Shown here piece after piece: positions 2,564 to 60,543 of a stretch of DNA of 64,000 nucleotides. Source of the stretch: an uncultured Candidatus Peregrinibacteria bacterium (lineage in GTDB: Bacteria; Patescibacteriota; Gracilibacteria; Peribacterales; Peribacteraceae); the NCBI GenBank assembly GCA_903854335.1, contig CAINVY010000011.1, positions 3,007-67,006 of the forward strand, written 5' to 3'. A model generated the notes under the pieces. That model was not told the origin of the DNA. It did no database searches and worked only from the letters and a program-made list of their open reading frames with translations. Each line of letters starts with the position of its first letter. The first letter of the stretch is position 1. The position numbers and the translations under genes are program-made.

Positions 2564-2629
2564 GGACTCTCTTTCCCTTCGAGGTATCGCTCCAGGCAGG
2601 CGGAGCCTGCCTTCGCGATGGTTTATTTT
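2564..2629. repeat. Intergenic hairpin repeat, about 66 nt (second copy at 26712-26778)
   Basis: ggactctctttcccttcgaggtatcgctccaggcaggcggagcctgccttcgcgatgg recurs nearly identically at 26712-26778 in the same orientation. The core hairpin is GGCAGGC-nnn-GCCTGCC. Confidence 0.8.
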
Positions 2630-5940: not shown

Positions 5941-6012
5941 CTTGTCCTTCTTTCTCAAGGCGAGAAAGAAGGACGAAGAAAGCGCCTGCCTGCCGGCAGG
6001 CAGGCTCCGCGC
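5941..6012. repeat. 72-nt palindromic module (exact inverted copy at 36394-36465)
   Basis: I reverse-complemented 5941-6012 by hand and it equals 36394-36465 at 72/72 positions. It contains the palindrome CCTGCCTGCCGGCAGGCAGG and the hairpin TTCTTTCTC..GAGAAAGAA. Confidence 0.9.
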
Positions 6013-6120
6013 GCCAATGCTCCTCCGCTCGGCCCTGCGCCTTCCTCGTGGCAGCTCCAAGGTTTCGCTGCCGCTCGTCGGCGAAATGCCACGGCGGTTG
6101 CGACCGCCGTGGCACAGGGC
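6006..6120. repeat. gctccaaggtttcgc module (related copy at 36098-36205, same orientation)
   Basis: Both copies share ...gctccaaggtttcgc(t/a)gcc.. Each then ends in a different perfect hairpin: GCCACGGCGG..CCGCCGTGGC here and GTGTCCGCC..GGCGGACAC in the other copy. Confidence 0.7.
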
Positions 6121-6125
6121 GTTCC

Positions 6126-6330
6126 CCACCACCCCCCTGGCGCGCGGTTCCTACCGATGTGTGTTTTTTTGTGGGCGCCGCAGCGCGATAAATAAGAAAA
6201 ATTCCATGGTTCCCACTGGAAACCCCACCATCAATTTTGATAATTCCGCAAATTGTTACCGTTAGGAAGGTAACGGGGGTGTGGGGGGTGTAGGGAACCG
6301 AACAAGGTTCCCTCACCCCCCACGAAAAGA
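6126..6330. repeat. About 200-nt hairpin-rich element, copy A (candidate ncRNA or MITE; copy B at 52868-53068)
   Basis: Aligns with 52868-53068 over the whole length with scattered, mostly transition, differences. Hairpins: GCGC-CGCA-GCGC (6175-6186), ATGGT..ACCAT (6206-6231), GTTACC..GGTAAC (6255-6274), and GTGGGGGGTG-TA-GGGAACC-GAACAA-GGTTCCC-T-CACCCCCCAC (6281-6323). Confidence 0.8.
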
Positions 6331-6447
6331 TCATGACGAAGAATACGGTCAACTTCTTATTTAGCCCTGAGAAAGAAAGGCGATAATCATTTTCTCTCTT
6401 ACGAAGAAAGTGAAGAACTATCCGAGAAAAAGTGGCATAGTGTTCCC

Positions 6448-10236: not shown

Positions 10237-13200
10237 ATGTTCCAACCAGTCGATATGTCGCTCCTCCTCTCTCGGCGCAAGCGCATCGCGCTTGGGCTCG
10301 GTCTGATCGTGGTGCCTTCGCTCGTGGCATTCATGATCTTCAACGCCGGACAACACGGCGCTCTCCATAGTGCAGCGCCACTCGGTGCGTCCCTTACTGG
10401 TGACTCCACATGTGACGGAGACGGCAACTGTGAAGTGACAGGCACCGCAAGTCTCGATGGCGATACGACGGTGGCGGGGACACTGTATATCGACAATGGC
10501 GCTTCTCTCAATCTGAATGGACATTCCATCACGGTCAGTGGCAATACCACGAATGAAGGATACATTATGGACATGGTCGGAGGTGGAGTCTTTGGTGGAT
10601 CTATTACGAACAACGCGACAGGAGTGATTAATGAAGGAATATTCACCAGCTCCGTGGACAACTACGGCGGCACCATTGGGGCGTTTCCCGTTACCGATAA
10701 TTCAACCATGACATTCTATGGTTCGGTGACAAATGAAAATTATGCGGACCTCAATCACGGAACCTTCTATAACGGTGTAACAAATACCTCCAATTCCTAC
10801 ATCTCCGGCGGTTCCTTTTCGGACAGTCTTACTGTCACGAACAGCAACGGCGCGCTCATCCAGGGCGGGACATTCGAATCTTCAACTACCATCTATAACT
10901 ATGCCACTATCAATGGTTCCTTCGAGATCGACGGAACCGTGTACAACTATGGCAACATCTCCGGCGGCAGCACGCACTTCACGGGCAGGGTACAAAACAG
11001 CTACATCATTGCCGGTGGCTGGTTCAGCGGCGGCGGGTCGGTGGAGAACGAAACACTCGGAAGCATCACCGGCGGAGCATTCGATACCCCTGTAAGCAAT
11101 TATGGAACCGTGTACTTCGGATATTTCTCGTATCCGGTGCAAAACGGGAATTCCTTTGATTCTTCGGCGTATATCTATGGTGGAACATTCTCAAGCACGG
11201 TCGATAACTATGGGACGATTGATATGACGAGATCGAACGGCCCCACTCCGGATTTCAGCTCCGCCATGGTCACGCGAGAATCCGGCGACACGGTTCTCTG
11301 TCCTTCGGACAATGATCAATGCTTCGCAGAGTATTCCGCATCCACCTCTTCGTCTGATTCCACTTCTACATCATCCTCAGACTCCACTTCTACATCTTCT
11401 TCTGATTCTACTTCTTCGAATTCCTCCGGTTCCATGTATCACTGGATTGGCGGAGATCCGAACACACCGCATGGGTGGAATGATCCCGCAAACTGGTTGG
11501 AAGGCGAAGTGCCCGGGGAATTTGCCGGTGCGGACATCCCCGTTACCGATGGGTATAACCCCTTTATTTGGCAGCAGGATTCTAATGATGGATCGAACGG
11601 TATTACTCTCGGCACCGTGACGATCGAGGACGGGGCGATGATCAAAAGTAACGGTACGATCCATGGGGGAACATTTCATGGAAGAATATTTAATGATATT
11701 TATGGTGTTATTCTTGGAGGGACATATACCGATGTGGATAACTACGGCGAAATCGATATGACGGGAAGCAGTTTCGGTCCCCCGGATTTCAGCGCCGCCA
11801 CCCTGACGCGAGAGAATGGCGATTCGCTTCTCTGCCCCGAAGGAAAAAATTGGGATGTGAATTCCAATCGGTGTGCCGCCCCAACGTTTCACTGGATCGG
11901 AGGCGATACGAGCAACGGATTCAATGCAAACTCTTGGGATAATCCGGCAAACTGGGCGGAAGTTATCAACGCGCCACCTCCAAGCGGAGCAAACATTGTC
12001 ATTGATGGTAATTCGAGCAATTCCCCACTTATTCCTTACGGTTATGCCAATGATAACGTCGGCGGCGTGACGCTCGGCGACGTGACGATTCGAGATACAA
12101 GTTGGGGCATACAAAACATCGGTACCATCACAGACATCACCGGAACATTCACAGATAATTTTACCGGTGATGGCATCGAAAACTTCGGTGTCATCATGGA
12201 TATCAGCGGTACATTTACGTATAGCGGTACTGGTCGCGGTATTTACAATGATGCAGGCACGATCAACCACTTCACCGGATCCTTCGAAAACAGTGGCAAT
12301 GGTATCGGAATCCAGCAGTACGAGGGTGGTTCCATCTACGATATCAGCGGAACGTTTACCAACGATGGTGTATACAATCCTAATACCGATACCACCGGTA
12401 TGGGTATCGATAATATCGATGGCACCATCACGAATATCAGTGGAACGTTCGTTAGTAGGGGTGCTGGCATCGGTATCAACAATGAAGCTGCTGGCACCAT
12501 TGCCAATATCAGCGGGACTTTTAATAATAGCGGGAATGGTATTGGCATTCACAACCACGGCTCTATTGTCGATCTCAGCGGTGGCGGAGTGGCGCATCCA
12601 TCAGGTGGCTTCACGAATAATGGTAATAGCTACATTGTCGAAAACGAAGGCTCCATAGCCGCTATCAGTGGAGCTGTTTGGAATAATAGTTACGGTGTCG
12701 GAATTTACAATATGAATATCATTACCGATATCAGCGGAAGTGAGACAAACTATGGGAATAATGAAGTCGTCGACAACGAAGGCACAATTGTCGACATTAG
12801 CGGAACCATTACAAACATTGGAGGTGGTGCCGGCATCGCCAACAATGGAGGAATTATCGTTAACATCAGCGGATCCCTTGCCAATAATGGTCTTGGTCTT
12901 GGTCATGGTATCGACAATGAATATGGCGTCATCAATAACATCACCGGGACGTTATCCAATACTAGCGGTGGGTATGGCGTATACAATGATGGTGCCGTTA
13001 ACGGCGGAAATTATCCGGTGCTGGTATATAACGCAACTGGGGGATTCATTTATGGTGGAACATTCTTAAGCACTGTCGATAACTTTGGTACGATTGATAT
13101 GACTGGCTCAAGCTACGGTCCTCCGAATTTCGATGTTGCTACAGTTGTACGAGAATTCGGTGATAGGATCATCTGCCCTCTTAGCAATGATCAGTGTGCC

Positions 13201-16200
13201 AGCGCATTTGGCTCTGCTTCCTCCTCTTCCGATTCCACCTCTTCTTCCTCCTCCCCAGTTATTTCTACGTACCATTGGGTCGGTGGAAATACGGATAATG
13301 GCTACAGCGCAGACTCTTGGGATAACCCGGCAAACTGGCTGGAAGCCTCTATCCCCCCAAGCGGAGCGAACGTAGAAATTGGAGCGGATGCAACGAACAG
13401 CCCGGTGATTCCGATTGGTTATTCGAATAGCGAGGATGGAGTGACGCTCGGTGATGTCACTATTATGAATACGAATGGATTTGGTATTATTAACCACGCC
13501 GTCATCAACGACATCAATGGTACTATCACCGTATATACCAACGTTGCTGGTATCGATAACTACGGAACGATTACCGATATCACCGGAACACTCAATAATA
13601 ATATAAACGGCATTGGTATTCTTAATGAAATTGGTGCCACCATTACCAATATCAGCGGATACGTTTTCAATAACGGTAACGATCCCTACAATCAAGGCGC
13701 TGGCATCCTAAACTTGGGAACGATTACCGATATCAAAGGTACGCTTACGAACGTTTACGTCGGGTCAGGCATCGAAAACGATTATGGGGGCACGATTACT
13801 GACATTAGTGGAAGTATTATGAACATTAATAGTGGTATTGGAATTTATAATGATGGCGGAATGATCACGGACATCAGCGGAACTATCACGAATAGCGACA
13901 ACGCCGTTGGTATCGAAAACATCGGCACCATTAGCGATATGAGTGGAACCTTCACCACTACGAGTAATGCGGATGGTATCGATAACTACAATACCATTGA
14001 CGACATCAGCGGTACGCTCAACTTAGACGTGGGCTATCACGAGTCTATGGGAATCTATAACGACAGTTCCGGCATCATCTACGATATCGGCGGCAACGTT
14101 ACCACGAGCGGAGCAGGCATCGGTATTAAAAATCTCGGGACAATGGTCGATATGCGTGGATCGTTTGCCAATGGTTCCCATGTTGGAATCGAAAATGATG
14201 GAATAGTCGTCGATATCAGCGGAATCTTTGAGAATACGGGGGGCGTCACCGGTATCGATAATGAAGGGTCAATGATCGACGTCAGCGGAATTGTGGGGGA
14301 CGGCGGTAATGGATTGGGAGTTTTCAATAACGGCACCATCTACGGAGGTCATTACGCGGGGAGTGTGAACAACGAGAACGGCACTATCGATGTGACAGCC
14401 AACCAAGGAGGAACGGGTCTCCTCGCGGGTACGGCAACGATCAGCGGCGGTAACGTTGCCGTTGAAACGGATGGAACGATTGATATGCGCAATGGGCTTA
14501 TGTTCAGCAGTTTGTCTTCCTTCGTCAATCATCATACGGGTAATGCAAACATCACGTGTACTGCAGGGCTGGTCTGGAATGCGACGTCTCATGTTTGCGC
14601 GGCACAGACTTGCTTGGTCGACACCGATTGTTCGATTGGTTCGCAGTACTGCGCATTCGGCACGTGCAGCAATGGTTGTCGTGGCGGCACCTCCAGCGGT
14701 GCATATCTCTGTAATGTCACCGCCACGCCGCACGCCTACTACACGTCCTGTTCCGGCAATTCCGCCTGTGTGAACGGCGGTTGGTGCGGGCAGGACAGTC
14801 TGTGCCATACAAGCAATACGACCTGTTCTTCCAGTGCCGTCTGCCCCACGGGTGCGATGTGCGGCCAAGACAGCGCTTGCCACAATTCCTGCACTGCCGA
14901 TAGCCAGTGCCCTGCGGGTGGTGCAGCGCCGACGCTGATCAACGTTGGTTCGTACCCCAGAAAAATCGTTCTCTCTCCTGACGGGTTGAAAGCGTATGTC
15001 TTGAACAGCGCAAGCAATACCGTTTCCGTCATCTCGACGCAAAGTAATGCGGTTACGGATACGGTGAGCGTGGGAGCCGGCCCTGCCGCCATAGCGTTTT
15101 CTCCTGACGGAACAAAAGCGTATGTGCTGAATGCAACCGATAAGAGTGTGACGATCTTCAATACGGGCGACACGTCACAGAAGACACTCGTGAGCAACAT
15201 CGGTTCGAGTCCCCAAAGCATTGCTATTTCTCCGGATGGGTTGAAAGGGTATGTCGCAGATGAGGGAGGGGGCTTGAAGATATTTGATACGAGCAATACC
15301 GCAAATAGGTCGTCCGTGAGCGTCACCTATCCCATCAACGTTGCTGTCTCTCCGGATGGATCGAAAATCTTTGTGACGAGTGCGTTTTACGGCTCAATTA
15401 CGATCATTGATGCCAACAATACCGCGAACAGAACCAGCGTGAACATGGGGAGTTATATGGATGCCATCGCTGTAACTCCGGATGGATCGAAAGTGTTCGC
15501 GCTGGATTATGGCGGCAATAGCGTGAAGATATTCGATCCGAGTTACCCCGCTGGCAAGACATCCGTTCCTGTCGGCCAGAGTCCTTCCGGCATTGTCTTC
15601 TCTTCAGATGGGTTGCAGGCGTATGTGTTGAATGGCAACAGCGGCAACATTTCCGTCATCTCGACGCAAAGCAATACCGTTACGAAAACCATTACGGTTG
15701 GCAGTAACTTCGTTGGTATTGCCGTCACGTCGGATAATGCGAAGGCTTATCTGACAAACAATCTGTCCACCGGCCGGGTTTCCGTCATCGATCTTCTTGG
15801 CTACGCCTGTGCCACGGACAACCAGTGTCATCTGCAGAGTTCCTGCACGTCGGATAGCGACTGCTCCGCGAGCAAGTACTGCAGTGCGGGCATATGCGTC
15901 ACGGGTTCCCGTTCAAGCTCCAGCTCCAGCTCTCAATCGAGTCTTGAGTCGCATGACATACAGAGTTCTCCATCGAGCTCAAGTTCCAGCACCAGCTCCA
16001 GTAGTTCTTCCTGCAGTGCGGATGATGAGTGTGCTGCAAATACGTACTGCAGCGCATCGAGCTGCATCGCGGGTTGTCGCACAGGCACATTCCAGGGTGG
16101 CTACGTTTGTGTGAATCACAGCTTCGCGGCTTCCTGTGCGGACAATACGTCCTGTGATGTGAGCGGCGGATACCGCTGCGCCACGGACGGCGCATGCCAC

Positions 16201-17184
16201 GCACTTGCGAGCTGCGGGAGTTCCGACAGCAATTGTCCCGTGAACTATTACTGCGATACCGGGACGCACGCCTGTAGCTCGGGTTGCCGTGCCTCGAGCG
16301 AATGTTCGGCTGGTTCCGTGTGTACGAATCATGTTTGCACCGTCTCGTCTTCCAGCTCCACATCGACTTCAAGTTCTAGTTCCACTTCGACGAGCTCTAG
16401 TTCGAGTTCTGTTACCGTTGCGGAATCTTCTGCCAGTTCTGCTGCGATTGTGAGCGGAGGCGGAGGAGGAGGTGGTGGAAACCGCGGGACGACGGGCGGA
16501 TCGAATGTCACGACGATCGGGGCTTCGGGAGTGAAGGGAGTGAAGGGTGCGAATCAGGATCTCGAGAGTAGCTCCACTTCCTCCTTAAGTGCCTCGGAAC
16601 GTATGGAAGAAAGACGCGAAGCAAGACTCCAGGCGCGTTCTGCGTCTGCTTCTTCCGCTTCGAGCTCCGTTCATGCTGTCGCGACCGCGCAGCCATCGGA
16701 ATCTTCCGCATCTGCCTCCTCGGCAGAGTCAGCTCTGCGCGATGTATCGCAGAGTGCATGGTATGCGCAGGCAGTAACCGAAGCCGTTGCGAAGGGATGG
16801 ATGACGGCTCCAAATGGTATCTTCTCTCCCGCGGGATTCGTGACGGTCAACGATATGGTCAAGGCGCTCAATGCACTTCACGTGCAGAGTCCCTTCCTTG
16901 ATCGTCTGTCGGACACGCGCACCCTCGCGCTCACGAAGGGTGGGTTTCTCCAGATTATCACCGATGCGTTCTCATCCGAGCTTCAAGCTCTCCTGAAGAC
17001 AAAGACGCCGGCGGATACTGCGAGAGTCTGGCATGCCATTCCGGTTTCAGTTTCTCACTACGCTGCCGTGCGCATGAGCATCCTCGCAGGATGGATCTCG
17101 ATGCCGCAGGGAAGCTTCCATGGTCTCGATCCCATCACCCGAGCGGAAATGGCGAAGATCCTCCTGAACGTGGTGGGGCTGTGA
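10237..17184 (+). CDS. Giant (2315 aa) multidomain cell-surface protein
   Basis: N-terminal TM anchor. Three HW(I/V)GG..W(D/N)(D/N)PANW modules of the PATR (autotransporter-associated beta-strand) type at about 11439, 11888 and 13270. Dozens of ISGT(F/I)xN..GxGIxN beta-helix-like repeats. YVTN-type beta-propeller repeats (SPDG.KAYV.N..sntVSVI) at about 14930-15790. Cys-rich modules, Ser/Thr linkers and a Gly8 run. Two C-terminal SLH-like repeats. Confidence 0.85.
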   Translation: MFQPVDMSLLLSRRKRIALGLGLIVVPSLVAFMIFNAGQHGALHSAAPLGASLTGDSTCDGDGNCEVTGTASLDGDTTVAGTLYIDNGASLNLNGHSITVSGNTTNEGYIMDMVGGGVFGGSITNNATGVINEGIFTSSVDNYGGTIGAFPVTDNSTMTFYGSVTNENYADLNHGTFYNGVTNTSNSYISGGSFSDSLTVTNSNGALIQGGTFESSTTIYNYATINGSFEIDGTVYNYGNISGGSTHFTGRVQNSYIIAGGWFSGGGSVENETLGSITGGAFDTPVSNYGTVYFGYFSYPVQNGNSFDSSAYIYGGTFSSTVDNYGTIDMTRSNGPTPDFSSAMVTRESGDTVLCPSDNDQCFAEYSASTSSSDSTSTSSSDSTSTSSSDSTSSNSSGSMYHWIGGDPNTPHGWNDPANWLEGEVPGEFAGADIPVTDGYNPFIWQQDSNDGSNGITLGTVTIEDGAMIKSNGTIHGGTFHGRIFNDIYGVILGGTYTDVDNYGEIDMTGSSFGPPDFSAATLTRENGDSLLCPEGKNWDVNSNRCAAPTFHWIGGDTSNGFNANSWDNPANWAEVINAPPPSGANIVIDGNSSNSPLIPYGYANDNVGGVTLGDVTIRDTSWGIQNIGTITDITGTFTDNFTGDGIENFGVIMDISGTFTYSGTGRGIYNDAGTINHFTGSFENSGNGIGIQQYEGGSIYDISGTFTNDGVYNPNTDTTGMGIDNIDGTITNISGTFVSRGAGIGINNEAAGTIANISGTFNNSGNGIGIHNHGSIVDLSGGGVAHPSGGFTNNGNSYIVENEGSIAAISGAVWNNSYGVGIYNMNIITDISGSETNYGNNEVVDNEGTIVDISGTITNIGGGAGIANNGGIIVNISGSLANNGLGLGHGIDNEYGVINNITGTLSNTSGGYGVYNDGAVNGGNYPVLVYNATGGFIYGGTFLSTVDNFGTIDMTGSSYGPPNFDVATVVREFGDRIICPLSNDQCASAFGSASSSSDSTSSSSSPVISTYHWVGGNTDNGYSADSWDNPANWLEASIPPSGANVEIGADATNSPVIPIGYSNSEDGVTLGDVTIMNTNGFGIINHAVINDINGTITVYTNVAGIDNYGTITDITGTLNNNINGIGILNEIGATITNISGYVFNNGNDPYNQGAGILNLGTITDIKGTLTNVYVGSGIENDYGGTITDISGSIMNINSGIGIYNDGGMITDISGTITNSDNAVGIENIGTISDMSGTFTTTSNADGIDNYNTIDDISGTLNLDVGYHESMGIYNDSSGIIYDIGGNVTTSGAGIGIKNLGTMVDMRGSFANGSHVGIENDGIVVDISGIFENTGGVTGIDNEGSMIDVSGIVGDGGNGLGVFNNGTIYGGHYAGSVNNENGTIDVTANQGGTGLLAGTATISGGNVAVETDGTIDMRNGLMFSSLSSFVNHHTGNANITCTAGLVWNATSHVCAAQTCLVDTDCSIGSQYCAFGTCSNGCRGGTSSGAYLCNVTATPHAYYTSCSGNSACVNGGWCGQDSLCHTSNTTCSSSAVCPTGAMCGQDSACHNSCTADSQCPAGGAAPTLINVGSYPRKIVLSPDGLKAYVLNSASNTVSVISTQSNAVTDTVSVGAGPAAIAFSPDGTKAYVLNATDKSVTIFNTGDTSQKTLVSNIGSSPQSIAISPDGLKGYVADEGGGLKIFDTSNTANRSSVSVTYPINVAVSPDGSKIFVTSAFYGSITIIDANNTANRTSVNMGSYMDAIAVTPDGSKVFALDYGGNSVKIFDPSYPAGKTSVPVGQSPSGIVFSSDGLQAYVLNGNSGNISVISTQSNTVTKTITVGSNFVGIAVTSDNAKAYLTNNLSTGRVSVIDLLGYACATDNQCHLQSSCTSDSDCSASKYCSAGICVTGSRSSSSSSSQSSLESHDIQSSPSSSSSSTSSSSSSCSADDECAANTYCSASSCIAGCRTGTFQGGYVCVNHSFAASCADNTSCDVSGGYRCATDGACHALASCGSSDSNCPVNYYCDTGTHACSSGCRASSECSAGSVCTNHVCTVSSSSSTSTSSSSSTSTSSSSSSVTVAESSASSAAIVSGGGGGGGGNRGTTGGSNVTTIGASGVKGVKGANQDLESSSTSSLSASERMEERREARLQARSASASSASSSVHAVATAQPSESSASASSAESALRDVSQSAWYAQAVTEAVAKGWMTAPNGIFSPAGFVTVNDMVKALNALHVQSPFLDRLSDTRTLALTKGGFLQIITDAFSSELQALLKTKTPADTARVWHAIPVSVSHYAAVRMSILAGWISMPQGSFHGLDPITRAEMAKILLNVVGL

Positions 17185-17220: not shown

Positions 17221-17778
17221 TCAGGGACTACGAAAGCGGGGTCCCTGATTTTGAAAGTTTGTAAGTGAAGATCGTTCTTCTTTCTCAAGACGAGAGTTTC
17301 GCCTTTCTTTCTCAGGGCAAGAACGCGTATCGCTTCTCGATACGTTCCCGCGTGTCATGGTGAGGTGCTCGCGCTTTCGCCTTCGTGGCTTTTTGCTCAG
17401 CAAAAAGCACCTCAGGCTGACACGGGAAGAAACTGAAGGGAGAAGCGAGCCACGAACCATCACGCGGGAACAATGGTATTTCCTCGGTTTTCCTCCTCGT
17501 CTCCGAGAAAAATGTTCCAGTGCTTTCTGATCCCTTTTGATCAAGGCTTCCTTTTTCTTTCGAGCCCATCCCTTCACCTGCTTCTCAAAATCAATCGCAT
17601 CCGTGATCTCCGGGAACTCCGCGGCGTACACGAGTTCAACCGGACGGCGGCGATGCGTGTACGCCTTCGGGTCCCATCCTGTCTGGTGCTCCCCGATACG
17701 CTTCTCCAGGTCATTCGTCACGCCGACGTAGCATGAACCGTCGGCGCAGCGGAGCATGTAGACGAAATAAGAATTCAC
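17221..17778 (-). CDS. GIY-YIG nuclease superfamily protein with a repeat-derived C-terminal extension
   Basis: YFVYMLRCADGSCYVGVTNDLEKRIGEHQTG...PVELVYAAEF is a UPF0213-type GIY-YIG core. A GTG at 17778 sits just before the first beta strand. The frame then reads about 90 codons through repeat 17352-17423 before stopping. Confidence 0.55.
   Translation of the reverse strand: MNSYFVYMLRCADGSCYVGVTNDLEKRIGEHQTGWDPKAYTHRRRPVELVYAAEFPEITDAIDFEKQVKGWARKKKEALIKRDQKALEHFSRRRGGKPRKYHCSRVMVRGSLLPSVSSRVSLRCFLLSKKPRRRKREHLTMTRGNVSRSDTRSCPEKERRNSRLEKEERSSLTNFQNQGPRFRSP
17352..17423. repeat. GTGTCA..TGAGGTGCT / AGCACCTCA..TGACAC palindromic element, copy a (inverted relative to copies b and c)
   Basis: Its reverse complement aligns with 22093-22163 and 52794-52866. 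The outer arms are conserved. The inner hairpin is GCTTTTTGC..GCAAAAAGC. Confidence 0.85.
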
Positions 17779-17851
17779 GACGACAGAATACCCTCCCTCA
17801 AAAAAATCCCCCGCACTGCGGGGGATTTTCAAAAGCGAGGTTAGAAATCCA

Positions 17852-18142
17852 TCACTTTCCCTCTGCAGATCGCTGTGCCATGAAGCAATCCTTGCAGAGA
17901 ACGGGCTTGCCGCCCTCCTCGACTGGTCGAGGCTGGAAGGGGACCTCACATTGCGCACCGCACTTCGCGCACACTGCCGGATACATCTGGCGTGTGGTGA
18001 GGCGCTGCGACTTGCGTGCCGTGCGACAGTCCTTGCATCGCTGCGGGGCAGAGAGGTTCCGGGACGCGTAGAACTCCTGTTCGCCCTCCGTGAAGGCAAA
18101 CGTGTTCCCGCAATCGCGGCAGGTGAGCTGCTGATCAGCCAT
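17852..18142 (-). CDS. Zinc-ribbon protein (duplicated CxxC...CxxC)
   Basis: 96 aa. LTCRDCGNTFAFTEGEQEFYASRNLSAPQRCKDCR plus a second half, CAKCGAQCEVPF...CKDCF. ATG start. Confidence 0.7.
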   Translation of the reverse strand: MADQQLTCRDCGNTFAFTEGEQEFYASRNLSAPQRCKDCRTARKSQRLTTRQMYPAVCAKCGAQCEVPFQPRPVEEGGKPVLCKDCFMAQRSAEGK

Positions 18143-18232
18143 AAAAAAGAAAGAAGGAAGTAAAAGCGCAATGTTCCTTCCTCCATGTTTCTCGGGGACC
18201 GATAGGACTGGTTTGAAGGAAATGCCAAGGAC

Positions 18233-18321
18233 ACTGTAGGGATAAAGCCTTGTATTGTCAAATTTCTCTCATACTGGACGAGGAAGTGAGAAATTGACAA
18301 AGAAACATATATTGCTATGGT
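18233..18321. promoter_or_regulatory. Mirror-image divergent promoter pair
   Basis: TTGTCAAATTTCTC (18255-18268) and GAGAAATTGACAA (18288-18300) form an inverted repeat that carries two opposed TTGACA -35 boxes. Plus strand: TTGACA (18294-18299), 16 nt, TGcTATGGT (18313-18321). Minus strand: TTGACA (18262-18257), 18 nt, TACAGT (18238-18233). Confidence 0.5.
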
Positions 18322-18347
18322 GATCTCTGCCTTTCCCATCTTTATTT

Positions 18348-21959: not shown

Positions 21960-22092
21960 GAGCAGTTCTCATCCGTTGCTCTTTTTTAGTTCCAATGAAA
22001 ACCGCCTGCGTCAGCTGGTGGGTGAAGAGGTAGCGATACGCTATGGCAAGCGTGATGGTTCGTGGCTCGCATCCCTTTTCAGTTTGTTTCCA

Positions 22093-22163
22093 TGTCAGCC
22101 TGAGGTGCTTTTTGCAAAGTAAAAAGCCACGAAGGCTTAGGCGCGAGCACCTCACCATGACAC
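22093..22163. repeat. GTGTCA..TGAGGTGCT palindromic element, copy b
   Basis: tgtcagcctgaggtgctttttgcaaagtaaaaagccacgaaggcttaggcgcgagcacctcaccatgacac. Lies between tig and the rplJ promoter. Confidence 0.85.
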
Positions 22164-26711: not shown

Positions 26712-26778
26712 GGACTCTCTTTTCCCTCAATGGTGTCGCTCCAGGCAGGCAGAGCCTGCCTTCGCGACGGATTGTTTA
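26712..26778. repeat. Intergenic hairpin repeat (copy of 2564-2629)
   Basis: ggactctcttttccctcaatggtgtcgctccaggcaggcagagcctgccttcgcgacgg. Confidence 0.8.
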
Positions 26779-36028: not shown

Positions 36029-36393
36029 TGTGAGGTGATCTCAGGGAAGAGGCTTCTCTTTCTTTGTAAGCGCGACAAAGAAAGAGAGAAAGAAAGCGCT
36101 GGCGCGCCGAAGCTCATCATCCGGCTCTGTGCCTTTGCTCCGGCTGCTCCAAGGTTTCGCAGCCGTCGCGTCGGCGTGGTGTCCGCCTGTGGCGGACACA
36201 GAGCCTCGCCTCTACCTTCAACAACTCGTTCTCGTGTGATAAGCAACGGCGCGCGACCGCGAAGGTTGTTCTACGTTCCATCAGCATATACAAAGAATGC
36301 CGGAGCCGCGCACCACGGGGTGGAATAGCACCGAATGGTTTGAGCTAAGCAAAAGATATTCTCTGAATCGGAATGGCACCCGTTAGCATTGGT

Positions 36394-36465
36394 GCGCGGA
36401 GCCTGCCTGCCGGCAGGCAGGCGCTTTCTTCGTCCTTCTTTCTCGCCTTGAGAAAGAAGGACAAG
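36394..36465. repeat. 72-nt palindromic module (exact reverse complement of 5941-6012)
   Basis: Hand-derived reverse complement is identical at 72/72 positions. The flanks remain similar for about 10 more nt. Confidence 0.9.
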
Positions 36466-36599
36466 AGATTCATGCAATAAAGATGTTGAATTGAGAAAGA
36501 AAGACAATATCCGTCGTCTTGAGAAAGATGGACGAGTAAAACTTAAAAGATTCCTCATTGAGTTCACATCGCTTCTCTGGTAACGTTTCCCGAAATCCT

Positions 36600-37649
36600 A
36601 TGTCTTCTTCCAATCAGAAGCCCCCATCGCGCAATCCCGACGATTACATCATCGCGACGCTCGGGAGCCATTCCGCCCTGCAGATTCTCAAGGGCGCGAG
36701 GGACGAAGGCATGCGCAACCTCACCATCTGCAAGCGCGGCAAGGAACGTCCGTATAAGAGTTTCCCCGTGGCGGACGAAATCGTCCTCGTCGATGATTGG
36801 AAGGAGTGGGATGATGACTTCGAGAAGAAGTTGATGGAGCGAAACGCGATCCTCATTCCTCACGGGTCGTTCATCTCGTACCTCGGCCACGAGCGTGTGA
36901 AGCGGATGAAGGCGATGTACTACGGGACGAAGGAAATTCTCGAGTGGGAGAGCGATCGCAGCATGGAACGGCAGTGGTTGGAGCAATCGCAACTGCGTCT
37001 TCCCCGCGTCTTCGAAAAGCCGGAGGACATCGACCGTCCCGTCATCATCAAATTCCACGGAGCGGGCGGGGGATTCGGGTACTTCGTCGTGAAGTCGCCG
37101 GAGCAATTTTACGAAGTGAAGAATCGCAAGTATCCCGACGAGCACGATTTCGTCATTCAGGAGTACATCATCGGTGCGCCGCTCTACATTCATTACTTCT
37201 ACTCGCCTCTCACGAAGGAGCTCGAGATCATGAGTATGGACAAGCGTTACGAATCCAATGCCGATTCCATCGGGCGCATCCGCGCGGAGGATCAGCTCGC
37301 CGCGAACATTCACACGTCCTACACGATTGTCGGCAACATGCCGGTCGTCGTCCGTGAGTCACTGCTTCCCGATCTCTTCGAGATGGGGGAGCGCGTGGTG
37401 GAGGTGAGCAAATCGCTCTGCGGCAAAGGACTCTTCGGTCCTTTCTGCCTCGAGGCGATCATCACCAGGAAGCTCGAAATCTTCGTCTTCGAAATCTCCG
37501 CGAGGATCGTCGCCGGCACGAATCCCTTCATCGAAGGTTCGCCCTACACCGCGCTCAAGTATCGTGAACCGATGAGCACAGGCCGTCGCCTGGTTCGGGA
37601 CATCAAAGAGGCAATTGTAGCGGGGAGGCTGGAGGAGGTGCTGGGGTGA
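36600..37649 (+). CDS. purP: Archaeal-type FAICAR synthetase-like ATP-grasp protein (PurP family), copy 1
   Basis: DYIIATLGSHSALQILKGARDEGM...ILIPHGSFISYLG...IIKFHGAGGG...EYIIGAPLYIHYFYSPL...EISARIVAGTN. The track start at 36558 is a TTG; the ATG is at 36600. Confidence 0.8.
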   Translation: MSSSNQKPPSRNPDDYIIATLGSHSALQILKGARDEGMRNLTICKRGKERPYKSFPVADEIVLVDDWKEWDDDFEKKLMERNAILIPHGSFISYLGHERVKRMKAMYYGTKEILEWESDRSMERQWLEQSQLRLPRVFEKPEDIDRPVIIKFHGAGGGFGYFVVKSPEQFYEVKNRKYPDEHDFVIQEYIIGAPLYIHYFYSPLTKELEIMSMDKRYESNADSIGRIRAEDQLAANIHTSYTIVGNMPVVVRESLLPDLFEMGERVVEVSKSLCGKGLFGPFCLEAIITRKLEIFVFEISARIVAGTNPFIEGSPYTALKYREPMSTGRRLVRDIKEAIVAGRLEEVLG

Positions 37650-39430: not shown

Positions 39431-39464
39431 GTATTCTGACTGTTTTCTGTATCCTTGGTTTGTT

Positions 39465-39539
39465 GGGGCTGTAGCTCAGTGGTAGAGCACCTGCTTTGCA
39501 AGCAGGGGGTCAGGGGTTCGAGTCCCCTCAGCTCCACCA
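39465..39539 (+). tRNA. tRNA-Ala (UGC), CCA encoded
   Basis: GGGGCTG acceptor stem with the G3:U70 Ala identity pair (GGGGCTG/CAGCTCC). Anticodon stem CCTGC/GCAGG with loop TTTGCAA. T arm CAGGGGTTCGAGTCCCCT. Confidence 0.92.
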
Positions 39540-39593
39540 CGGCGTTCGCGAACGCCGTGGTCCACCAGGGTTCGCGAACGACGTGGTCCACCA
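39537..39593 (+). repeat. 24-nt palindrome starting at the CCA, then a tandem duplication ending in TCCACCA
   Basis: CCACGGCGTTCG/CGAACGCCGTGG (39537-39560). The units ggcgttcgcgaacgccgtggtccacca and gggttcgcgaacgacgtggtccacca follow in tandem. Confidence 0.8.
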
Positions 39594-49364: not shown

Positions 49365-49375
49365 TGGGGAGGGGG

Positions 49376-49476
49376 TAGGACGTAGGACAGAGGACGTAGG
49401 ACGTAGAATCTTGTGGAGATTCCTCTTTTTCTTACGTCCGCAGCCCTATGTCCTACGTCCTACGTCCTCTGTCCTC
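49376..49476. repeat. Opposed heptamer arrays, 4 direct plus 4 inverted (T/G)AGGAC(G/A) units
   Basis: TAGGACG TAGGACA GAGGACG TAGGACG (49376-49403). Loop containing GAATCT-tgtgg-AGATTC followed by CTCTTTTTCTT. Then TGTCCTA CGTCCTA CGTCCTC TGTCCTC (49449-49476). Confidence 0.85.
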
Positions 49477-49497
49477 ATTCCCTGTATACTCCCTGCG

Positions 49498-52212
49498 ATG
49501 CCCCCCGCAAAAAGCAACACCGTACTTCTCCGTATCCGTCCGTCGCTTCCCGATCCCGATGAAACCAGCGCCGCGCGCGGTCCGATCATGATGGAGGCGG
49601 TGCTCTCGACGTTGCACTCGCTGAGAGGCAAGAACGCCGTGATCAGTTTGGAGATTGGAATCAGCGAGGGGAAGATCGCGCTCTTTGCGAGATCCGCCGC
49701 TGCATCCGCTTCGCTCATCGAGAGTCAGATCTACGCGCAGTTTCCCGATGCAGAAATCGATCGCGTTTCCGTCGATTTGCTCGATCCGCGGGAAGGGGAG
49801 TCGGTTTTCGTGAGTGATCTCACGCTCACCCATGCCGAGCTCTATCCGATCAAGCGCTATCCGCAGTTCGTCGATCTGGTGACGCGGCAGAATATCGATA
49901 CGATTGCGGGAATACTCTCGTCTCTCGTTCGCTATCCGAAGCCGCAAATGCGCGGTTACATCCAAGTGGTCATCGCTCCGACGTCACATAGATACCGACG
50001 TCGTGCGTTGGCATTCTTCCCGTTGATTCTTCGCGGTATCAGCAAAATGTCGCCCGCCTATGCTCGCCTCTTCACGCGTGTGCACATGGCGCGAGGCTGG
50101 AACAGAGTGTTGCTCCTTCCCGCTGACATCCTCATGGGAGGATTTCGTGCGTGGTTCGGCAAACCGGCGACGAAGAACATTTCTCTGCTCACGGGAGAAG
50201 AGACGCAGGATGAAAATGTGGATGAGGACCACAAGGTTGGCATGCGCAGCCACGATCGTGAGGATGCGGCGACGGCTGCGGTGGACAAGATCAATCATCT
50301 CCTCTTCGATGCCTGCGTGCGCGTGAATGTCACCGCTCCCGAGAAGTACGCGGAGGAGGCGAAGGCAAAGGCGGAGGAAATCGCTTCGAGTTTTCGACAA
50401 TTCACCCTACCGCAGTGCAACGGTTTTTCGGCCACACCCTGCCGCATGCGGTCGCAGTACGTCCGCGGTCTCTCCTCGCCGTTTGCGCTCTCCGTAGAGG
50501 AAGTCGCCACACTCTGGCACGTGCCGAACATCCTCGTGAAGACGCCGAATTTCGATTGGGTCGTCAGCAAGAAATTGGAACCGCCCGTGGATTTGCCCGT
50601 CCTCGAGGACGAAGTTTCAGACCCCGATTTGACGGTGCTCGGAGAAGCAGTGTTCCGCGGTCAGCGTCAGAAATTTGGTATTCGCACGGACGATCGTCGC
50701 CGCCACATGTACACGATTGGAAAGACCGGCATGGGCAAATCGACGCTCCTCGAGAACATGATCTTTTCGGATATCCATGCGGGGCGCGGCGTTGCTGTCA
50801 TCGATCCGCACGGCGATCTCGTGGAGGCGGTTATGCGCTTCATCCCCGCGAGCCGCACGAATGATGTCATCCTCTTCGATCCGGCAGATCGCGATTATCC
50901 CGTCTCGTTCAACATGCTCAATTGCCCCAATCCCGAGCAGCGCCCCCTCGTCGCGTCGGGGCTCATGAGCGTCTTCAAAAAGCTCTGGCCCGACGCCTTT
51001 TCCGGGCGCATGGAATACATCCTCCGCAATGCGTTACTTGCGCTTCTGGATGCGGAAAACAACTCCATGCTCGGGATCATGCGCATCTTTGTGGACGATG
51101 CATTCCGTGCCAAGATCATGGAGCGCGTAACGAATCATCTCGTGAAGAGTTTCTGGGAGGACGAGTACACGAGCTGGTCGGACAAGTACCGCACCGAGGC
51201 GATCGCGGCGGTGCAGAACAAGATCGGGCAGCTCGTCACGACGCCGCTGATCCGTAATATCGTGGGGCAGGTGGTTTCCAAGGTGGATATTCGCCATGCG
51301 ATGGACACGGGCAAGATCATTCTGATGAATTTAAGCAAGGGAAAGCTCGGTGAGGATAATTCCGCGTTCCTTGGCTCGATGATGGTCACGAAGTTCCAGC
51401 TCGATGCCATGAGCCGGGCGGATATTCCGGAGAAGGATCGACGGGATTTCTTCCTCTACGTCGACGAGTTCCAGAACTTCGCTACCGAATCCTTCGCCAC
51501 GATCCTCTCGGAGGCGCGTAAGTACCGCCTCAATCTCACGATGGCCAATCAGTACGTGAATCAGCTCCTCATCGGGGAGGGGAATGGCAATACGATGCTT
51601 CGGGATGCGGTTTTCGGCAACGTGGGCTCCATGGTGTGCTTCCAGGTCGGATCCGACGACGCGGAGCCCCTCAGCCTGCAATTCGAGGAAATGGTGCTGC
51701 CCAAAGACATTCTAAGTCTTCCCAAGTACCACGCGTACACGCGCCTGATGATCCGCGGCGTGCCCTCGAAGCCGTTCTCCGTGAGCACGCTCCCTCCGCC
51801 CGATTTTGAGCAGGATGACGGGCGCATGGAGACGATTCGTCGTCTCTCCCGTGAGCGGTATTCCGAGAAAGCGTCGGTCGTCGAGGAGAAGATCACGAAG
51901 TGGATTGCGAGCGGGCGTGCCTCCGCGAAGGATGCCAAACACTCCGAGAAGGCCAAGGAGAAGGAAGAAGAAGAGTTGAAGAAAGCCAAGAAGAAGGGTT
52001 TGACGCTCGCGCAGTACCGCGAATGGCGCGATCGTGAACTTCGGACAAACGAATTCAACGCGCTTCGCAAAAAAGAATTCCTGGGTGAAACGCTTTCAGA
52101 GGAGGAAGTGAAGGCAAAAGCCGCATTGGCCGAGATGCTCGAAAAGACTGGCGGGATCCCTCCTCCAAGCAAGACGATGCTGGATATGAAGGAGAAGAAG
52201 AAAGCCTCCTGA
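49498..52212 (+). CDS. Type IV coupling protein-like (VirD4/TraD/HerA-type) P-loop ATPase
   Basis: Walker A IGKTGMGKSTLLENM, Walker B FFLYVDEFQNFAT, a long N-terminal domain and a K/E-rich C-terminal tail. Start moved to ATG 49498, downstream of the repeat array. Confidence 0.75.
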   Translation: MPPAKSNTVLLRIRPSLPDPDETSAARGPIMMEAVLSTLHSLRGKNAVISLEIGISEGKIALFARSAAASASLIESQIYAQFPDAEIDRVSVDLLDPREGESVFVSDLTLTHAELYPIKRYPQFVDLVTRQNIDTIAGILSSLVRYPKPQMRGYIQVVIAPTSHRYRRRALAFFPLILRGISKMSPAYARLFTRVHMARGWNRVLLLPADILMGGFRAWFGKPATKNISLLTGEETQDENVDEDHKVGMRSHDREDAATAAVDKINHLLFDACVRVNVTAPEKYAEEAKAKAEEIASSFRQFTLPQCNGFSATPCRMRSQYVRGLSSPFALSVEEVATLWHVPNILVKTPNFDWVVSKKLEPPVDLPVLEDEVSDPDLTVLGEAVFRGQRQKFGIRTDDRRRHMYTIGKTGMGKSTLLENMIFSDIHAGRGVAVIDPHGDLVEAVMRFIPASRTNDVILFDPADRDYPVSFNMLNCPNPEQRPLVASGLMSVFKKLWPDAFSGRMEYILRNALLALLDAENNSMLGIMRIFVDDAFRAKIMERVTNHLVKSFWEDEYTSWSDKYRTEAIAAVQNKIGQLVTTPLIRNIVGQVVSKVDIRHAMDTGKIILMNLSKGKLGEDNSAFLGSMMVTKFQLDAMSRADIPEKDRRDFFLYVDEFQNFATESFATILSEARKYRLNLTMANQYVNQLLIGEGNGNTMLRDAVFGNVGSMVCFQVGSDDAEPLSLQFEEMVLPKDILSLPKYHAYTRLMIRGVPSKPFSVSTLPPPDFEQDDGRMETIRRLSRERYSEKASVVEEKITKWIASGRASAKDAKHSEKAKEKEEEELKKAKKKGLTLAQYREWRDRELRTNEFNALRKKEFLGETLSEEEVKAKAALAEMLEKTGGIPPPSKTMLDMKEKKKAS

Positions 52213-52793
52213 TTTCCAAAAAATGGTTCAGGTTTCCCATCGGCTGTTAGCTGATTTGAATCAATGGCAGAGAGAGGAGTAGCCACGCAGGCTTCCAAGA
52301 CGGTCGCTATACCCAGGTGATGCAGTAGGTGTGCAGGAGTTGGCCGGGAGGAACGTTTGTTGGTCACGTGGCCATTCCTATCTCTGCGAACGATGGTGGA
52401 GAAAGAACAGGAATTGTTTGTATGGATTCTTTATGTCTTGATCTCCTATTGGGTGGGGGATCGTGTAATCCTATCTTCGAATTCCGATTACTCAAGGAGT
52501 CTGGGTAGAGGGAACTGCCAGAGAGGATACGAATACAAAATGTGCACATAAATAAACAAATAAAATATGGCTTTTGTAAGCCATAAAAGTCATGAATGAA
52601 TAAATAAATTGACCATTTGGATTATGCTCCTTGCATTCGCATTTATGAACAGTTTTGAACTATTCATCTGTGAAGATTTATTTACTATTCTCTTTCTTTG
52701 TCTGGGCGACAGGAATCGCCTTTCTTTCTCCGGTCTAGAACAACGAAGCGTGTCTACGGTTCGTGGCTCGCTTCCTTTTTATGGAAAAAACCT

Positions 52794-52866
52794 GTGTCAG
52801 CCTGAGGTGCTCCAAGCGAAGCGAGGAGCCACGAAGGCTTGGGCCGCTCGCACCTCACCATGACAC
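52794..52866. repeat. GTGTCA..TGAGGTGCT palindromic element, copy c
   Basis: Same outer arms as copies a and b. The inner hairpin is replaced by GCTCC..GGAGC, so pairing is kept with a different sequence. It abuts the 200-nt element. Confidence 0.85.
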
Positions 52867-52867
52867 G

Positions 52868-53068
52868 CCACCTCCTGGAGCACGGCTCCAACCGATGTGT
52901 GTTTGTTTTTGTGTGCGCCGCAGCGCAATAAAAAAGAAAAATTCCATGGTTCCCACTGGAAATCCCACCATTAACTCCGAAAATTCCACAAATTGTTACC
53001 GTTAGGAGGGTAACGGGGGTGTGGGTGTGTAGGGAACCGAACAAGGTTCCCTCACCCCCCACGAAAGA
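52868..53068. repeat. About 200-nt hairpin-rich element, copy B
   Basis: Collinear with 6126-6330. Ends 5 nt before the glyA stop codon (convergent side). Confidence 0.8.
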
Positions 53069-60426: not shown

Positions 60427-60543
60427 GCAGTGTCACCCTGAGGAGCTCCGAAGGAGCGTCACGAAGGGGGCACGTCTTCATGGCAGTCGGTCGCATTTCG
60501 TGACGCCCCGCATGCGCGGGGCTCCTCAATGTGACACGACTGC
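60427..60543. repeat. Long palindromic element related to the GTGTCA family, copy d
   Basis: GCAGTGTCACCCTGAGGAGC...GCTCCTCAATGTGACACGACTGC outer arms enclosing two inner hairpins. Starts 2 nt after the dcd stop. Confidence 0.75.

Follow-up and report, generated by a model that had tools for sequence, protein, structure and literature searches.

The window analysed here is a stretch of 64,000 nucleotides (C11:3007-67006) of a 1.17-Mb genome (G000) that is 96.6% complete in 13 contigs. Relatives of the RelA, trigger factor and PurP proteins encoded in it all come from Candidatus Peribacteria/Peregrinibacteria MAGs, which places the genome among the CPR bacteria. Palindromic modules recur between the genes (Table 1), and the mosaic that they form is explained by two nested hairpin families, a scaffold and a "Russian-doll" unit. 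The scaffold is composed of a terminal "TTCTTTCT" hairpin (H), a linker, a GC-rich closing stem and an exchangeable interior. The conserved interior, referred to as the core, is a three-way junction of ~130 nt with the invariant loop TCCAAGGTTTC. The Russian-doll unit, GTGATGGTTCG...CACCATGACAC, constitutes the C family; it ranges from 27 to 136 nt in length and contains inverted copies of itself.

Table 1. Repeat modules and an adjacent gene in the window (positions are those of the window)
Feature	Position	Strand	Details and basis
D module	2564..2629	+	TCGC..GCGA stem around GGCAGGC-GGA-GCCTGCC hairpin; fold computed
H hairpin, composite left terminus	5943..5975	+	GTCCTTCTTTCTC AAGGC GAGAAAGAAGGAC; copies aligned; the genome has 32 full TTCTTT hairpins, including this one
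P, perfect 22-nt palindrome	5984..6005	.	GCCTGCCTGCCGGCAGGCAGGC; 11 exact copies
Core three-way junction	6006..6148	+	Closing stem P1, stem P2, hairpin P3 (loop TCCAAGGTTTC), variable hairpin V GCCACGGCGG/CCGCCGTGGC; covariance-model match C11:9012-9154, E = 3e-22
E module	6133..6330	+	Ends in GGGGGGTGTAGGGAACC..GGTTCCCTCACCCCCC hairpin; fold z = -5.1
Composite tail with terminal H half-unit	6331..6421	+	CCCTGAGAAAGAAAGGCGA; self-match interval to 6421; alignment
Two H-type half units	17272..17331	.	Family D5; self-match interval
C module, 112-nt form	17352..17463	-	Outer unit with inverted inner unit and GCTTTTTGC/GCAAAAAGC hairpin; ~10 nt 3' of GIY-YIG gene
Small GIY-YIG nuclease gene	17479..17778	-	Pfam GIY-YIG matches; intact C7 paralogue compared
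C module, 112-nt form	22052..22163	+	Between tig and rplJ leader; gcaagc/gcttgc flanks; fold z = -4.4
D module, second copy	26712..26778	+	Self-comparison
Full-length type-I composite	36054..36465	+	H1 hairpin 36054-36086; core 36099-36257; R interior 36301-36402; P palindrome 36401-36422; inverted H2 hairpin 36431-36463; alignment; core model match C11:39105-39263
Additional H half-units outside composite	36466..36532	.	Self-match interval; alignment
C variant	52791..52870	+	Inner hairpin GCTCCAAGC/GCGAGGAGC; self-comparison, unit alignment
E module, second copy in the window	52868..53066	+	90% identical to 6158-6285 (D3)
C-family composite relative	60427..60543	+	Includes mini-unit-like TCGTGACGCCCCGCATGCGCGGGGCTCCTCA..TGACAC; genome self-comparison

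Architecture of the two hairpin families

The original prediction had described separate intergenic modules, and comparison of the copies recovered each of its matches. Every position of 5941-6012 (72/72) matches 36394-36465 read as its reverse complement, and the match grows to 81 nt at 99% identity in the self-comparison (inverted pair I2). The module reported as shared by the same two regions was located through GCTCCAAGGTTTCGC at 6054-6068 and 36146-36160. Alignment of the copies together with their flanks showed that these first two modules (A and B) are pieces of one composite of ~410 nt with inverted termini, a relationship overlooked previously. Of this type-I composite the genome holds ~11 copies. 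It starts with the hairpin CTCTTTCTTTGT..ACAAAGAAAGAG, followed by a purine-rich linker and an optional 22-nt palindrome. The middle consists of a GC-rich closing stem around the CTCCAAGGTTTCG hairpin and a variable hairpin, then a spacer, and the right half has another closing stem, the interior of which (R) differs, followed by the optional palindrome once more and the inverted terminal hairpin. The type-I composite is two scaffolds placed head to head, and the copy at 36053-36465 folds much better than shuffled sequence (z = -5.9). The optional palindrome amounts to 20 nt inserted between GC dinucleotides, and paralogous composites either have or lack it at the identical site. The inverted terminal repeats of the composite are ~81 nt long; the compact unit of other species has the hairpin at one end only.

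At the locus from 5941 to ~6421, the left scaffold is the same as in the composite and the right part is replaced by module E, a fifth module that had also been missed. E is present in ~17 copies, each of which follows a closing stem or a C unit on the 3' side. H half-units flank the composites, and the half-hairpins found on the two sides, beyond the terminal hairpins, are often complementary to each other, as would be seen if an older hairpin carried the element in its loop. The GGCAGGC modules pair at 84% identity over 57 nt (2572-2628 vs. 26721-26777, D14), and further D modules lie at C13:116339 and C5:101415. The alternative that all modules are embedded in one larger mobile element holds in part: several modules are pieces of an element with inverted ends, but no transposase is aboard.

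The C unit has the layout GTG-ATGGT-TCGTGGC...GCACCTC-ACCAT-GA-CAC. The arms GTGTCA....GAGGTGC / GCACCTC....TGACAC named in the prediction were located at 17352-17423, 22147-22163 and 52794-52866, and its "longer relative" is a composite relative of this family (Table 1). The nesting of the family and its 27-, 46- and 98-nt forms had not been noticed. The smallest forms are a 27-nt micro unit and a 46-nt mini unit (~7 copies, inner hairpin GCTCCG/CGGAGC). The 98-nt and 112-nt forms enclose a second, oppositely oriented unit that carries a further hairpin (GCTTTTTGC/GCAAAAAGC, GCTCCAAGC/GCGAGGAGC or GCCCCGC/GCGGGGC), and the 132-136-nt forms have an extra 24-nt insert. Every layer is bordered by a short inverted repeat of its own (gcaac/gttgc, cctag/ctagg, gcaagc/gcttgc, cccgc/gcggg). 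Conserved outer arms around exchanged self-complementary interiors, as had been proposed, are seen in the alignments of both the scaffold and the C family. According to BLAST, the long C form is restricted to G000 and its closest relative (G002); another genus has a micro C-like unit.

A C module lies ~10 nt after the stop codon of each of two near-identical small GIY-YIG genes, one in the window and one on contig C7. The window gene (~100 aa) has lost its stop (TAA -> TAC) and reads into the C module, giving a spurious 372-aa ORF at 17221-18339 on the minus strand. Since this long ORF results from the loss of a stop codon, it does not support the idea that the modules are coding repeats, which is ruled out by indels and the absence of a conserved frame. 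A separate small zinc-ribbon-like ORF lies at ~17852-18142.

Copy number, distribution and turnover

Self-comparison and a module map of the genome revealed 58 module loci on 10 contigs, with a total length of 10.5 kb. The placement of the modules is as had been predicted from the window, namely genome-wide, intergenic, mosaic and in both orientations: module orders recur, no locus lies in a called gene, and 0/58 loci have their midpoint inside a gene of the home-made, codon-usage based gene map used for these counts. A simple local duplication is rejected because the copies are spread over 10/13 contigs in the whole-genome self-comparison. The 22-nt palindrome has 11 exact genomic copies (~0 expected), and the word CTCCAAGGTTTCGC occurs 12 times in the genome (0.01 expected). 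The copies are dispersed singly among housekeeping genes, in every arrangement relative to them (sense, antisense, divergent and convergent). Between convergent genes the loci are doubled (17 vs. 8.4 expected, p = 0.005), a pattern usual for tolerated intergenic repeats. Modules are often located at contig ends. Certain copies are 99-100% identical to each other, which is consistent with recent copying.

A covariance model of the core matched 56 of the 121 sampled genomes (41 of 84 genera) of the family; the copy number per genome ranges from 1 to at least 28. Among 201 genomes sampled from the phylum, none from beyond the family gave a match. By BLAST, the left ~120 nt of the scaffold are shared by most genomes of the genus and by several other genera, and more distant genomes have the 22-nt palindrome by itself. 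The single core copies of four genomes all have different neighbouring genes, and a conserved master locus was rejected on these non-syntenic single copies.

Comparison of G000 with G002 (~80% protein identity) showed that the slots upstream of dtd and downstream of tig are filled in both genomes with different modules. One composite occupies an orthologous site in the two genomes in opposite orientation, and one C copy is present in G002 and not in G000; alignment of this filled-versus-empty site was not possible and gave no clean empty site. One orthologous C copy keeps 108/112 positions, with changes in loops and linkers only, while the flanking coding DNA is ~89% identical. The better conservation of the C copy than of its coding flanks would also fit a host function. 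At 23 other Peribacteria loci there is no module upstream of purP, and the flanks and neighbours differ and are not alignable. No target-site duplication was found: the elements end with inverted repeats or H half-units, and no direct repeats are present. The elements are multi-copy, intergenic, patchy across genera and non-syntenic, and closely related species have them rearranged and inverted.

The synteny between G000 and its relative ends exactly at an H half-unit (L001:165-190 vs. window ~21986), and at this break the closest relative has the rplJ leader joined to the dtd-relA region. PurP (window 36600-37649) is 99% identical to the copy of the closest relative (L167, AlinenLipids_bin-9222 contig 016), whose contig ends inside purP; RelA and trigger factor are only 79-80% identical. 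This difference suggests that the region was exchanged recently or that the bin is mixed.

Core fold and orientation relative to replication

The unit shared with six other species is compact (~190 nt). It is arranged in the order hairpin, linker, P1, C-rich strand, P2 and P3 with its loop, followed in the 3' part by a variable hairpin and another C-rich strand, and then by the 3' strand of P1. The 11-nt loop is invariant, whereas the stem sequences vary between copies with their complementarity kept. RNAalifold, run on a plain MAFFT alignment of 20 core copies from 7 species, finds P1-P3 unaided, with double changes in 13/23 pairs. Pair counting showed that 98.1% of the cells are paired, compared with 87% after shuffling and 30-48% with slid partners. 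Two-sided changes occur in 12 pairs vs. 4.3 +- 1.3 in shuffles, a value reached by 0/500 shuffles, and the covariation score of the core is 0.324 vs. 0.100 in shuffles. The picture is repeated by 47 further copies from two genomes, in an alignment fitted to the model. The core helices are preserved by compensatory changes.

The claim that structure is kept over sequence is thus supported for the core by covariation across species. However, selection is not the sole possible cause of such patterns, as self-complementary swaps would also be obtained from nested insertion into hairpin tips or from arm-templated quasi-palindrome repair.

Strong covariation, an invariant loop and C-rich single strands resembling an anti-Shine-Dalgarno sequence (CCUCC) are features expected if the fold were selected as RNA, either in a structured ncRNA family or in cis-acting elements such as UTR stabilisers, terminators or translational regulators. 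The conservation of the orthologous C copy above its coding flanks, the enrichment of loci at 3' ends between convergent genes, and the position of certain copies directly upstream of genes in sense orientation would agree with this. However, G:U pairs are nearly absent (2/420 and 9/969 cells) and not commoner than A:C mismatches, and the wobble pairs show no strand asymmetry in the 20-copy and 47-copy core sets, which fits DNA pairing better than RNA pairing. Rfam reported tRNAs only at the gathering score and nothing credible over the elements even at E<=1, and no U-tract follows the hairpins in the C-family copies inspected. Nested copies occur in both orientations, all gene contexts are represented, the distribution is patchy and non-syntenic, and the orientation of the core tracks GC skew rather than genes. 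Selection of the fold as RNA therefore appears unlikely.

The sense strand of the core lies on the G-rich strand in 11/14 copies of G000, in 15/18 copies of G003 when assigned by replichore (skew windows of 20 kb are noisy in this genome), and in 22/28 of G046 among the matches listed. Pooling the three genomes, with G046 represented by the matches listed, places 48/60 copies on the G-rich strand (p = 3e-6), whereas 44-52% of the long ORFs lie on it, so that genes are distributed ~50:50. The C family shows no replichore bias (13:11). By convention, the G-rich strand is the leading strand and has the same sequence as the lagging-strand template. In three Peribacteraceae genomes dnaA lies away from the GC-skew switch (G000:C3:33080-33559; G003:C1:338450; G046:C3:42905) and was dropped as an origin marker. 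The orientation of the core follows the replichore rather than the genes; the leading or lagging label given to its strand is set by the skew convention only, since dnaA does not mark the switch.

The replichore polarity of the core, the high conservation of the orthologous C copy, and an invariant loop carried on variable stems, which suggests protein recognition of a folded single strand, would also be expected of DNA sites that serve the host on the lagging-strand template (primosome or primase loading, or other initiation signals) or that bind nucleoid or recombination proteins, and that were secondarily amplified. The elements, however, are lacking in about half of the family genomes and throughout the rest of the phylum; several genomes have a single copy, a distribution hard to square with a core role in replication. 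Their positions are non-syntenic, and the mosaic, nested and rearranged forms look selfish. A primary host function is in our view quite unlikely.

Proposed mobilisation and relation to known repeat systems

The window contains no transposase, as had been noted, and the genome also lacks Y1/RAYT (PF01797), IS110 and TnpB genes, within an assembly of the completeness given above. The enzyme searches covered Y1, IS110, TnpB, tyrosine recombinases and GIY-YIG. The only tyrosine recombinases of G000 are two of Xer size. Inverted copy pairs enclose ordinary genes (ychF etc.), and no autonomous transposase copy was found between them. GIY-YIG nucleases were rejected as mobilisers, with homologues in 118/121 genomes and no relation to the presence of the elements. 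Close homologues of the small GIY-YIG protein are multi-copy (up to 8 per genome), several of them with internal stops, a selfish-family pattern. Y1 genes are present in 79/121 family genomes, with up to 10 per genome, and are absent from the genus of G000. Across the family, their association with the elements is negative (odds ratio 0.38, p = 0.014), and Y1 was likewise rejected as the mobiliser. Y1 is missing from 12/20 element-rich genomes, including two 99%-complete genomes with 18 and at least 28 copies. Some Y1 genes of the family are embedded in frames of ~1000 aa.

The prediction had assigned the modules to a REP/BIME-like system. REP units are imperfect palindromes of 30-40 nt in which a conserved GTAG precedes the stem foot on its 5' side (PMC3333891). 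The Peribacteria repeats resemble REP/BIME/REPIN in being high-copy, intergenic and palindromic, with mosaic combinations of units and linkers, both orientations, head-to-head doublets and compensatory differences between unit types (PMC3333891). In contrast to REP/BIME, their units are 27-410 nt long and nested, and the core forms a three-way junction whose loop is invariant. The alignments inspected by eye show no conserved GTAG beside the hairpins, and G000 has no RAYT. Membership is further opposed by the negative association with Y1 across the family. On the best reading, the Peribacteria repeats work like REP/BIME and are not members of that family.

A related possibility is that the elements are relics of a REP/RAYT (REPIN) system, spread by a Y1 enzyme now lost from the genus or acting from a different replicon. 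The frequency of Y1 in the family, the REPIN-like head-to-head doublet of the type-I composite, the match between the polarity and ssDNA chemistry of the Y1 type, and the presence of the 22-nt palindrome by itself in two Y1-rich genomes (G016 and G017) would favour such an origin. However, the absence of Y1 from most of the element-rich genomes and the lack of a GTAG-type guide in the alignments inspected oppose it, and the near-identical copies in a Y1-less genome point to recent copying. We regard this origin as very unlikely. In G016 and G017, the lone 22-nt palindrome might be a REP of these genomes.

Hairpin-dependent ssDNA transposons are a known case of orientation linked to replication (PMC5027513). 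The Peribacteria elements share with IS200/IS605 and its palindrome-associated derivatives the dependence on hairpins and the orientation bias relative to the replication fork (PMC5027513). They differ in that neither Y1 nor TnpB is present in G000 and no fixed target tetranucleotide was recognised.

Other systems show partial similarity. Correia elements of Neisseria, BOX and ERIC are non-autonomous, modular intergenic repeats of 100-400 nt. As in MITEs and these repeats, the type-I composite has inverted termini of ~80 nt, which the compact unit of other species lacks, and optional inserts occur at fixed internal sites. Unlike MITEs, the elements show no target-site duplication, and no parent IS with matching ends was found among the Y1, IS110 and TnpB elements searched. 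Integron attC sites are recognised by their fold as ssDNA and have conserved outer parts around a variable self-complementary centre. Unlike attC, the Peribacteria copies do not lie in cassette arrays and have no integron integrase context, the two Xer-sized enzymes being the only tyrosine recombinases present.

Taken together, the elements are best explained, with a probability of roughly 55%, as non-coding, non-autonomous, fold-defined DNA repeats that are maintained or moved as ssDNA by some enzyme. The core fold would matter in ssDNA; in the simplest case, an enzyme specific for structure and loop could copy or move the units at the fork, on the template of the lagging strand. In G000 this enzyme would be one other than Y1/RAYT, IS110 or TnpB. 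Fresh units may land preferentially in the tips of existing hairpins, and landing there would generate the nested, mosaic architecture; recombination between shared stems would then shuffle and invert the modules. Tentatively, the core may represent a new replication-polarised, fold-defined ssDNA element, either one with an enzyme class new to CPR transposition and hairpin tips as targets, or a domesticated site within the template of the lagging strand.

CPR bacteria have tiny, streamlined genomes that are usually described as poor in mobile DNA. No paper on REP- or MITE-type repeats in CPR bacteria was found in the literature, and a family-wide set of nested hairpins in these ultra-small bacteria is apparently so far undescribed. 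The repeat system covers the whole family and disrupts assemblies and synteny, and the repeats offer an explanation for contig breaks and rearrangements in Peribacteria MAGs. The covariance model of the core is usable for annotating Peribacteria genomes. The question raised is which enzyme recognises a three-way DNA junction with this loop; should the activity that mobilises the units prove to be new, the few hairpin-dependent DNA transactions known would gain a further mechanism.

Three further repeats were observed in the window. A 2315-aa ORF at 10237-17184 on the plus strand contains many diverged repeats with a 66-nt period (D1, D2, D4, D6, D10 and D12) and likely encodes a large repetitive surface protein. 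The start of the ORF at 49411-52212 holds a dense inverted repeat of GGACGTAGGAC-type words (49369-49475; I4 and I9). The tRNA-Ala gene together with ~50 nt downstream (39463-39591) matches six other sites in the genome.
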